From a virus (Duplodnaviria; Heunggongvirae; Uroviricota; Caudoviricetes), in the IMG/VR virus record IMGVR_UViG_2718218139_000011: a stretch of DNA of 45,230 bases; one strand, written 5' to 3'. Positions 30,028 through 30,623 of the stretch are shown one piece after another. Position 1 is the stretch's first letter. Each line of letters begins with the position of its first letter. The notes below the pieces were generated by a model, which ran no database searches, had not been told where the DNA came from, and saw only the letters and a program-made list of their open reading frames with translations. Position numbers and translations under genes: made by a program.

Positions 30028-30195
30028 TCAAGCATTATGCAGGCTGTTTCTTTTTATCACCGGCCACAGCAATACCACAATGCCGCAGACCAGCACCCCA
30101 TCCGCCAGCACCGACATGATTCTGCTGGTGAAATCCACCATCACCACCAGAAACAGCAGGAGTGCAGCCACAGCCAGGCGCAGTTTTACCGTCAC
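30028..30195 (-). CDS. Putative 55-aa two-helix membrane protein, translationally coupled to the TerB-like gene
   Basis: GTG start overlaps the TerB-like stop (GTGA) with GGAG 10 nt upstream; translation VTVKLRLAVAALLLFLVVMVDFTSRIMSVLADGVLVCGIVVLLWPVIKRNSLHNA; absent from the ORF track (non-ATG start). Confidence 0.4.
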   Translation of the reverse strand: MTVKLRLAVAALLLFLVVMVDFTSRIMSVLADGVLVCGIVVLLWPVIKRNSLHNA

Positions 30196-30623
30196 AGGTG
30201 ATTCTCCAGACGAAGACCCAGAACACCGGCAATCTCTTCCAGCACCTTGCGCTCTTCCGGCTCAATTTCGCCGTCTGCCTCCGCAATGGCCACCGCCACA
30301 TCCAGCACATCTTCCGCTTCACGCGTATCGTGTTTCACATCCTCGATCTCACGTAACGCCGCACGACGACCAATTTTAAAGTTCGTATCCAGCTGACCGA
30401 TAATGGTTGCGCTAATCGCATTAATTTCCGAGGTAAACGCAGACAACGCAGGCTGATTACGTAAGACCTGTTCGATCTTCGCTTTCTCGGATGCCTCGCA
30501 TTCACCATCTGCATAGGCCACCAGGTATGCAGCGTTAATCACCGCCTGTGCCAGATCGCGTTTCTCAAACTTTTTAATTTCCGCTGCCGCTCTGCGGGTT
30601 TTCTTTTTGAAGATTCCAAACAT
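30192..30623 (-). CDS. TerB-like protein (tellurite-resistance TerB / DjlA N-terminal domain family)
   Basis: Start at internal MFGIFKKK with AAGGAA RBS; AAYLVAYADGE and AIAEADGEIEPEE motifs typical of TerB. Confidence 0.65.
   Translation of the reverse strand: MFGIFKKKTRRAAAEIKKFEKRDLAQAVINAAYLVAYADGECEASEKAKIEQVLRNQPALSAFTSEINAISATIIGQLDTNFKIGRRAALREIEDVKHDTREAEDVLDVAVAIAEADGEIEPEERKVLEEIAGVLGLRLENHL

Follow-up and report, generated by a model that had tools for sequence, protein, structure and literature searches.

The closest described relatives of the locus examined here are the tciA-tciB-tciC genes of phages P1 and P7, in which a TerB-family gene is followed by a gene for a DUF3927 hairpin protein and then by tciC, which in P1 encodes a 35-amino-acid protein with a single transmembrane (TM) helix (phrog_23152). 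The tci names originated with P1 and were assigned by homology, according to the GenBank notes. CRISPR interference (CRISPRi) knock-down of P1 tciA, tciB and tciC left plaque formation unimpaired (PMC10695390); this is the only functional datum that we found in the searched literature, in which other papers repeat the annotation or speculate. We analysed a gene pair at positions 30028-30623 of a 45,230-nucleotide tailed-phage sequence, IMG/VR record IMGVR_UViG_2718218139_000011 (this whole stretch is called the window). A preliminary description, made from the letters of the sequence, had recognised there a TerB-like gene and a coupled small membrane open reading frame (ORF) and had suggested a superinfection-exclusion or membrane-stress module.

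TerB domains also occur in the terZABCDE cluster, which has been linked to resistance to phages and to pore-forming colicins. Its TerB-TerC core joins a soluble TerB-domain protein to an integral inner-membrane protein. A TerB-TerC complex is attributed to Turkovicova 2016 as cited in PMC11003894 and PMC12054061, and deletion of terC lowered phage resistance (PMC12054061). In the defence system Dionysus, a TerB-like protein is combined with membrane and pore-forming partners (bioRxiv 10.1101/2025.09.30.679545). Dionysus (DinABC), Shango (SngA) and Bunzi (BnzA) share with the pair in the window a TerB-like domain accompanied by membrane or pore-forming partners, and 'membrane surveillance' has been proposed for them.

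The window agrees with P1 and P7 in having a TerB gene (42% identity to P1, 51% to P7) followed by a DUF3927 hairpin gene, with tRNA genes adjacent; in P1 the genes are non-essential. It differs in location, as the pair lies in a Q-dependent late region in the window and in the C1-controlled ban operon in P1. The P1 and P7 leader is unlike that of the window, and an element resembling the 3' part of the small RNA (sRNA) STnc100 (CACCGGGARGCACYCGGCACC) lies upstream of tciA there instead. By inspection, tciC had no counterpart among the listed minus-strand ORFs between tciB and the downstream esterase gene; STnc100 takes its place 3' of tciB. Compared with the ter cluster, the membrane partner is a 55-amino-acid two-helix protein and not the multi-pass TerC, there is no TerD, TerZ, TerA or TerE, and tciAB is encoded by phages, virulent ones included. 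Unlike the TerB-containing defence systems, tciAB consists of only two small genes, with no helicase/ATPase, MAEBL protein or four-TM toxin; it is phage-borne, probably expressed in the lytic phase, and without a PADLOC match (Dionysus lies outside that library).

Identity of the gene pair

The interval 30028-30623 is filled exactly by two minus-strand ORFs. The first, tciA (30192-30623; ATG at 30623, stop ending at 30192), encodes a soluble TerB-family protein of 143 amino acids, and the second, tciB (30028-30195; GTG at 30195, stop ending at 30028), encodes a two-helix DUF3927 membrane protein of 55 amino acids. Their junction reads CTGGAGAATCACCTGTGACGG on the minus strand, where the TGA stop and the GTG start have GTGA in common: the coding strand runs CTG GAG AAT CAC CTG TGA in the frame of tciA and GTG ACG GTA in another. 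The Shine-Dalgarno sequence of tciA, AAGGA, stands 8 nucleotides (nt) 5' of its ATG, and that of tciB, GGAG, stands 9 nt 5' of its GTG. GGAG falls within the 3' end of tciA, which is typical of coupling, and tciB is translationally coupled to tciA through the GTGA overlap. Both families are kept across many phage types, so these ORFs are far beyond chance.

TciA matched Pfam TerB (PF05099) over residues 26-138 with 60.2 bits (cut-off 24.4, E = 2.9e-16), phrog_632 of PHROGs with E = 1.7e-69, and the solved Klebsiella pneumoniae TerB structure 2JXU over nearly its full length (residues 14-137, E = 4.4e-8). An AlphaFold prediction from the single sequence was poor (predicted local distance difference test, pLDDT, 56.6), and the model used was built with 33 homologues; it has six helices, a pLDDT of 86.8 and a predicted TM-score (pTM) of 0.80. 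The best Foldseek match of this model in the PDB was the TerB-like 2H5N (probability 1.00, TM-score 0.52-0.61), followed by 2OU3, 'tellurite resistance protein COG3793', the TM-scores of these matches being only moderate. TciA is therefore a soluble, all-helical, single-domain TerB protein. Its two A-D-G-x5-E motifs, AYADGECEASE (D39, G40, E46) and AEADGEIEPEE (D117, G118, E124), showed little or no variation among 11 phage and 33 database homologues, and the acidic positions D23, D39, E46, E92, D95 and E124 were invariant in the 11 phage homologues. The duplicated A-D-G-x5-E motif of the TerB family is a putative cation or ligand site. A basic N-terminal tail (MFGIFKKK...), modelled with low confidence, is kept as MFGxFKKK in homologues. 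No terC, terD or other ter gene was present near the pair in the window, where the adjacent features are tRNA genes, an AraC-like gene, a Q-type antiterminator gene, an sRNA gene and an esterase gene.

TciB matched Pfam DUF3927 (PF13064) with 62.3 bits (cut-off 25, E = 4.3e-17) and phrog_1470 with E = 4e-30. Kyte-Doolittle hydropathy in 15-residue windows peaked at 2.83 (residues 7-21) and 2.71 (residues 29-47), the second hydrophobic stretch spanning about residues 26-47. Basic residues at both ends (K4 and R6; K48 and R49) and a short loop, DFTSR, predict a hairpin with both termini inside (N-in/C-in). The motif [VI]DFTS[KR]xMS[IV]LADG...WP[LV][IF]K was common to 86 distinct TciB proteins. 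The DUF3927 family is small. At 50% identity it forms 62 clusters in a collection of 1.84 billion representatives; almost all are 50-65 amino acids long, and its members are essentially always free-standing proteins. Longer entries in which TerB or another N-terminus is joined to DUF3927 (P0124, P0186, P0292, P0250, P0265) were considered as natural fusions and rejected: their junction residues are out of frame, which marks them as frameshift or chimeric artefacts and not as Rosetta-stone fusions. A fusion suspected from Escherichia coli 'DUF3927 domain-containing' entries matching the 5' end of tciA proved to be a pseudogene fragment among insertion sequence (IS) elements.

Megablast against phage records retrieved the same cassette from Escherichia phage JLK-2012, annotated as tciA/tciB, and from the record of an O157 prophage, labelled 'TciA/TerB-like'. 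Of 5,426 complete E. coli genomes, 802 contained at least 80% of the pair, and the 1,145 E. coli genomes with any match carried it at a median of 4 places each, with a maximum of 10. One O103 strain, RM8385, contained a copy that was 100% identical.

These results sort the claims of the preliminary description. Its account of the two ORFs was right and lacked only their minus-strand orientation. The 143-amino-acid TerB-like protein stands on the PF05099 match, the GTGA overlap with a coupled 55-amino-acid ORF on the junction sequence, and the two-helix membrane nature of that ORF on hydropathy and the DUF3927 match. Its view of the pair as cargo agrees with the variable presence of the pair and with the non-essential homologues in P1 (PMC10695390). 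The statement that this was not a described system was mistaken. The pair is tciA-tciB, a TerB plus DUF3927 combination already named in phage P1, catalogued in PHROGs as phrog_632 and phrog_1470, and annotated in RefSeq, where hundreds of genomes carry the names 'tellurite resistance TerB family protein' and 'DUF3927 family protein'.

Conserved coupling and exchange of the membrane partner

Related loci were fetched with a five-sequence TciA alignment, as an 11-sequence alignment was too divergent to serve as a query, and pairing was surveyed by running hidden Markov models (HMMs) built from annotated examples against all ORFs of the fetched loci. By tblastn, TciA homologues were found in 131 phage records, temperate and virulent. 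Carriers included lambdoid phages, P1, P7, D6, SJ46 and Klebsiella phages; the N4-like phages Pollock, FSL SP-076, SP-058, TR2 and Shigella B2; Erwinia and Salmonella jumbo phages of roughly 240 kb; and Pseudomonas, Vibrio, Pantoea and Sinorhizobium phages. TciB homologues in the phage-record search were confined to enterobacterial phages, where they lay directly 3' of TciA.

The start of tciB lay between -8 and +4 nt from the tciA stop in 78 of 80 near-identical IMG/VR loci; one of the two exceptions was truncated by the contig end and the other was frameshifted. The same spacing was found in the window, JLK-2012, P1, P7, Pollock, ChrisDB, Klebsiella phage 5 LV-2017 and LIET2, and in 12 of 15 species-level loci from Enterobacterales and Aeromonadaceae (HMM E<=1e-11). 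The remaining three loci showed a weak overlapping match, an apparent frameshift and a different 49-amino-acid two-helix ORF. Conservation and adjacency of the small ORF in homologous prophages, which the preliminary description had named as a point to check, are thus evident in both the IMG/VR set (78/80) and the species-level set (12/15).

Phage AF and 14 of 16 Pseudomonas prophage loci have a different small membrane ORF as partner, which the TerB gene overlaps by 4 nt and which is truncated in one of these loci. This partner, phrog_27356, is a protein of about 67 amino acids with one TM helix and the motif C-x-[WY]-YGYQT[ED]R...VGCM[VA]K...W.PR.E[LI]R, and it is not homologous to TciB. Its ORFs lie at 2432-2653 in locus L091 and around 3435-3641 in L106, L110-L115, L117-L120 and L122-L124. 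The other two of the 16 Pseudomonas loci have a DUF3927-like hairpin as partner. Since a non-homologous protein can stand in for TciB, what is conserved is the combination of TerB with a small inner-membrane protein translated together with it. Lambdoid, P1-like, N4-like and jumbo phages have this coupled arrangement in common, a finding that is new here. Conserved coupling with a swappable partner is the strongest indirect evidence that both proteins act together at the membrane.

The TciB of phage 434 (L002, 3067-3225, minus strand) lies 85 nt 3' of a gene for a 247-amino-acid multi-pass membrane protein (phrog_1521). As it follows phrog_1521 and not TciA, TciB may also work with other partners.

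A structured leader RNA upstream of tciA

A conserved, structured 5' leader of about 135 nt precedes tciA (30624-30760, minus strand), as defined by nucleotide identity, RNAalifold and a covariance model. Its identity was 78-85% in Klebsiella, Pantoea, Franconibacter, Pseudescherichia and Buttiauxella prophages, with a partial copy in the jumbo phage ChrisDB, and it was conserved even where TciA identity was only 43%. RNAalifold resolved a 5' hairpin (P0), a helix P1 (CCACAGAG/CUCUGUGG) and a long irregular helix P2, in which the 5' strand CCUUU...GGGGUGAGC pairs with GCUCACCC...AAAGG, the Shine-Dalgarno sequence included. Among 62 distinct leader sequences, 97.4% of cells were paired, compared with 37-49% in slid-partner controls, and 15 pairs had changed on both sides as against 3.3 in shuffles (0 of 500 reached the observed value). 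A 12-sequence set gave the same picture. The presence of G-U pairs on the sense strand and the weak reverse-strand scores indicate a strand-specific structure at the RNA level. A conserved RNA structure thus takes in the ribosome-binding site of tciA, a feature that is new here.

A degenerate pattern of the leader core occurred at 120 sites in viral contigs; tciA follows 114 of them and a frameshifted tciA follows 3. The covariance model R1 scored 159.9 bits at window positions 30615-30760 and recovered the pattern sites as well. Further leader copies lie at L003 1209-1362 (minus), L149 3693-3821 (plus), L186 150-278 (minus), L146 14202-14352 (plus) and L086 1447-1599 (plus). In lambdoid prophages and a jumbo phage, weaker R1 copies precede other genes, among them an ANT/KilAC antirepressor gene located between lysozyme and Rz and a gene for a 246-amino-acid protein; in these weaker copies both strands of helices P1 and P2 are altered together.

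Rfam has no family that matches the leader, whether the threshold is the gathering score or E<=1, and the literature search returned no described leader RNA that matched it. Identity with PasA or PasC was rejected, as a preprint puts PasA beyond the esterase and PasD/STnc100 on the near side. A true pseudoknot of helices P1 and P2 is unlikely, because their 5' strands are without a linker and P2 is about 20 base pairs (bp) long. The crossing order a-b-a'-b' without a linker suggests that P1 and P2 are probably alternative helices, and ViennaRNA folding of the E. coli leader gave a third competing helix.

Phage mRNA leaders that occlude a Shine-Dalgarno sequence or are processed include the lambda N leader with its RNase III site and the T7 R sites, and folding-kinetics control is known from hok and MS2. 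The tciA leader is like these in that an irregular helix of about 17-20 bp hides the ribosome-binding site while an upstream helix competes with it; it differs in having no sequence or Rfam relationship to them. The leader may act as a folding-kinetics switch, as a switch that depends on a factor or ligand, or as an RNase III processing site.

Genomic context and the Shiga toxin slot

The whole region is transcribed leftward in the order Q, a 65-amino-acid ORF, the AraC-family regulator, tRNAs, hairpin, tciA, tciB, STnc100 and esterase. The unit is headed by a Q-type late antiterminator (DUF1133/Phage_antitermQ; 32340-32906, minus strand; PF06576, E = 8.7e-105; PF06530, E = 5.7e-8). The regulator, YdeO/GadX-like (31069-31782, minus strand), matched phrog_1450 and, below the cut-off, NCBIfam YdeO (E = 7e-30), and has a good promoter-like site at 31845-31818 (minus strand, 10 of 12 matches). 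We take it to resemble the prophage Psr regulators of the glutamate decarboxylase/locus of enterocyte effacement (GAD/LEE) network of enterohaemorrhagic E. coli (EHEC). ARAGORN and Rfam both identified the tRNA cluster Met/Ile2 (CAT), Arg (TCG) and Arg (TCT) at 30793-31042 (minus strand). Between tRNA-Arg(TCT) and the tciA leader, a consensus scan placed a terminator-like hairpin with a T-run (30761-30780, minus strand), whose 8-bp stem contains 6 G-C pairs and is followed by TTTTTT; it also stands first in the leader block of other genera. Downstream, an STnc100-family sRNA gene (29851-30023, minus strand; RF02076, 104.7 bits, gathering score 47) begins 5 nt past the tciB stop, with a terminator-like hairpin 3' of it (29808-29826, minus strand; terminator scan), and is followed by a nanS-p-type esterase gene of 645 amino acids (27776-29713, minus strand; DUF1737 + SASA + DUF6645 in Pfam).

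Shigella phage 75/02 Stx, a Shiga toxin 1 (Stx1) phage, has the order Q, stxA, stxB, an STnc100-like segment, esterase, DUF1378, DUF826, holin and lysozyme. Its nucleotide homology to the window runs at 97% and 93% identity through the esterase and the sRNA and stops at window position 30008, at the 3' edge of tciB. As the shared downstream block ends where stxA-stxB sit in 75/02 Stx, the pair occupies the stx slot, and the placement originally proposed, between the tRNA cluster and nanS-p in the position of stxAB, is upheld by this comparison.

STnc100 marks the downstream recombination boundary that the window has in common with Stx phages. STnc100 copies are expressed in strain EDL933, one of them confirmed by northern blot (PMC5331693), and the same element lies 3' of stx2B in Stx2 phages (PMC12370729). 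In the window, STnc100 could be a 3'-untranslated-region product of the tciAB transcript or an RNA with its own promoter. In E. coli O103 RM8385, an insertion of ISCro1, of the IS66 family (L003 4992-7607), interrupts the stretch from STnc100 to the esterase, and an AgvB anti-sRNA (L003 7741-7802, 96.5 bits) adjoins STnc100 on the opposite strand; both are absent from the window.

tciAB adjoins tRNA genes in unrelated phage backbones, each with a different tRNA set (L001, L084, L086, L087, L093, L095): Ile2/Arg/Arg in the window, Asn/Thr/Gly in JLK-2012, Thr in a Klebsiella phage and Ser in a Franconibacter prophage. In P1 and P7, Asn/Thr (plus Ser in P7) lie upstream of the pair and Ile2 (CAT) downstream, and in Erwinia phage ChrisDB the pair stands within a tRNA array. 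Such adjacency may have arisen at a common hot spot for insertion, or the tRNA genes and tciAB may be linked in function. The early region of the window's prophage also carries a DicF antisense sRNA gene (42514-42565, plus strand; RF00039, 76.7 bits), and the annotation of P1 lists a 'dicF-like region' in the same operon as the tci genes.

Timing of expression

In the window, tciAB lies in the Q-dependent late region, behind the terminator-like hairpin. A consensus scan, whose sites were overall no more than expected by chance, gave no promoter-like site directly 5' of tciA. As in the window, tciAB of Pantoea stewartii and of a Klebsiella phage comes after the gene for the late antiterminator and before those for lysis. 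In P1 and P7 the pair belongs to the C1-repressed ban operon, downstream of a C1 operator, and in Pollock it lies among early or middle genes. The hairpin, the leader that pairs the Shine-Dalgarno sequence, the C1-repressed operon of P1 and the virulent carriers favour a role in lytic growth over lysogenic conversion, and we consider from this arrangement that tciAB is probably made in lytic growth rather than in the quiescent lysogen. For the same reasons, together with the lack of a promoter-like site in the scan, the earlier supposition that the pair is expressed from a prophage appears doubtful.

Possible functions of TciA and TciB

The explanation that we favour, if only tentatively, is that tciAB encodes a membrane-docked TerB/hairpin module that, during the lytic phase, protects the inner membrane of the infected cell or excludes competing phages. 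By analogy with TerB and TerC, TciA and TciB would form a complex on the inner membrane, at its cytoplasmic side. The complex would be made in lytic development and not in the quiescent lysogen, and would alter or guard the inner membrane. DNA injection by a competitor, or colicin-type pores, would then fail to depolarise or kill the cell before the phage's own holin fires. Such an activity would correspond to the 'phage inhibition / pore-forming colicin resistance' side of the Ter phenotype, as superinfection exclusion or membrane protection; tellurite resistance would not be expected from the pair alone. The combination of TerB with a membrane partner in tciAB parallels the TerB-TerC complex and Dionysus, which provide a precedent for joint action at the membrane.

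Several points weigh against this explanation. Contact between TciA and TciB is something that we infer by analogy, and database proteins included no genuine TerB-DUF3927 fusion. Phage 434 has TciB without TciA, and the small membrane partner ORF was not seen beside TerB in PMBT3, Vibrio K481 or phiM5. In PADLOC-DB v2, a library that predates Dionysus, TciA matched only PDC-S48 (E = 0.0035, 14.5 bits, 35 residues) and TciB matched nothing. Low-level expression in the lysogen may occur, the promoter evidence being a consensus scan at chance level, and the neighbouring STnc100 is expressed in uninduced cultures (PMC5331693). The searchable literature yielded no experiments on the function of TciA or TciB.

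The pair may instead serve the phage's own membrane housekeeping, through ion or metal homeostasis, proton-motive force or antiholin-like timing of lysis, with competitors unaffected. We regard this as a real though rather unlikely possibility. In lambdoid phages the cassette lies immediately upstream of the lysis region, and the two helices, N-in/C-in topology and charged C-terminus of TciB resemble class II holins; however, TciB matched no holin family in Pfam, holin and lysozyme are already supplied by other genes of the prophage, and the pair lies away from the lysis genes in P1 and N4-like phages. The response of ter genes to Zn and Mn (PMC12054061), the conserved acidic residues in both TciA and TciB and the carriage of the pair by virulent phages would suit such a role, whereas knock-down of tciABC in P1 gave no plaque phenotype (PMC10695390). 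Carriage by strictly virulent phages, where host suicide would be counter-productive, tells instead against an abortive-infection or toxin-antitoxin-like defence of the lysogen, in which TciB would be a depolarising toxin that TciA restrains and releases on a TerB-sensed cue, as in Dionysus. The gene order and 4-nt overlap do resemble antitoxin-toxin pairs, the pair is multi-copy in EHEC lysogens, and Shango, Bunzi and Dionysus, which are validated as defence systems, contain TerB domains (bioRxiv 10.1101/2025.09.30.679545); the ter 'Phi' phenotype and the loss of phage resistance in a terC mutant, which is partial (PMC12054061), point the same way. Yet PADLOC matched no Shango or Bunzi component, the pair has a terminator upstream, a sequestered Shine-Dalgarno sequence and no promoter-like site of its own, and the P1 copy is repressed in lysogens, so that we consider this defence improbable.

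The database name 'tellurite resistance protein' implies lysogenic conversion to tellurite or metal resistance, and membership of the TerB family and the many copies held by tellurite-resistant EHEC strains are in keeping with that name. Resistance of the ter type, however, needs TerC and TerD together with other ter genes, the minimal units being terBCDE or TerC-TerD plus TerZ or TerA, and none of these genes adjoins the pair. Resistance in EHEC maps to a separate island, TAI, and the authors of the PMBT3 paper were equally negative about a lone phage terB. Such a conversion is very improbable.

A wider reading joins the leader to the membrane module that we favour. The leader would represent a new, widespread class of phage cis-regulatory RNA that gates accessory genes, such as those for TerB and an ANT-type antirepressor, and TerB with a swappable partner would be a minimal membrane sensor/effector that excludes competitors; we hold the two parts together to be doubtful. 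That the leader would serve as a translational switch, dependent on folding kinetics or a ligand, or as an RNase III module in the late transcripts of lambdoid phages and in a jumbo phage, and that temperate and virulent phages alike would use the pair, belongs to the same reading and is likewise a claim in which we place little confidence.

Significance

Authors writing on Erwinia jumbo phages (PMC7824862) and on Klebsiella prophages (PMC7371120) have already speculated that phage TerB genes serve superinfection exclusion, and an exclusion or membrane-stress function for tciAB, reached by analogy, is thus a plausible guess that has been voiced before. The leader RNA and the interchangeable membrane partner are new here and are the parts worth following. 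The leader, which sequesters the Shine-Dalgarno sequence, offers a handle on the regulation of accessory genes within late transcripts. tciA-tciB is among the commonest accessory cassettes of enterobacterial phages and stands in the Shiga toxin slot. If exclusion or membrane stabilisation proves true, it would bear on the competition among EHEC prophages and on the choice of phages for therapy, and the pair would provide a minimal model for the action of TerB domains in the ter operon and in TerB-containing defence systems.

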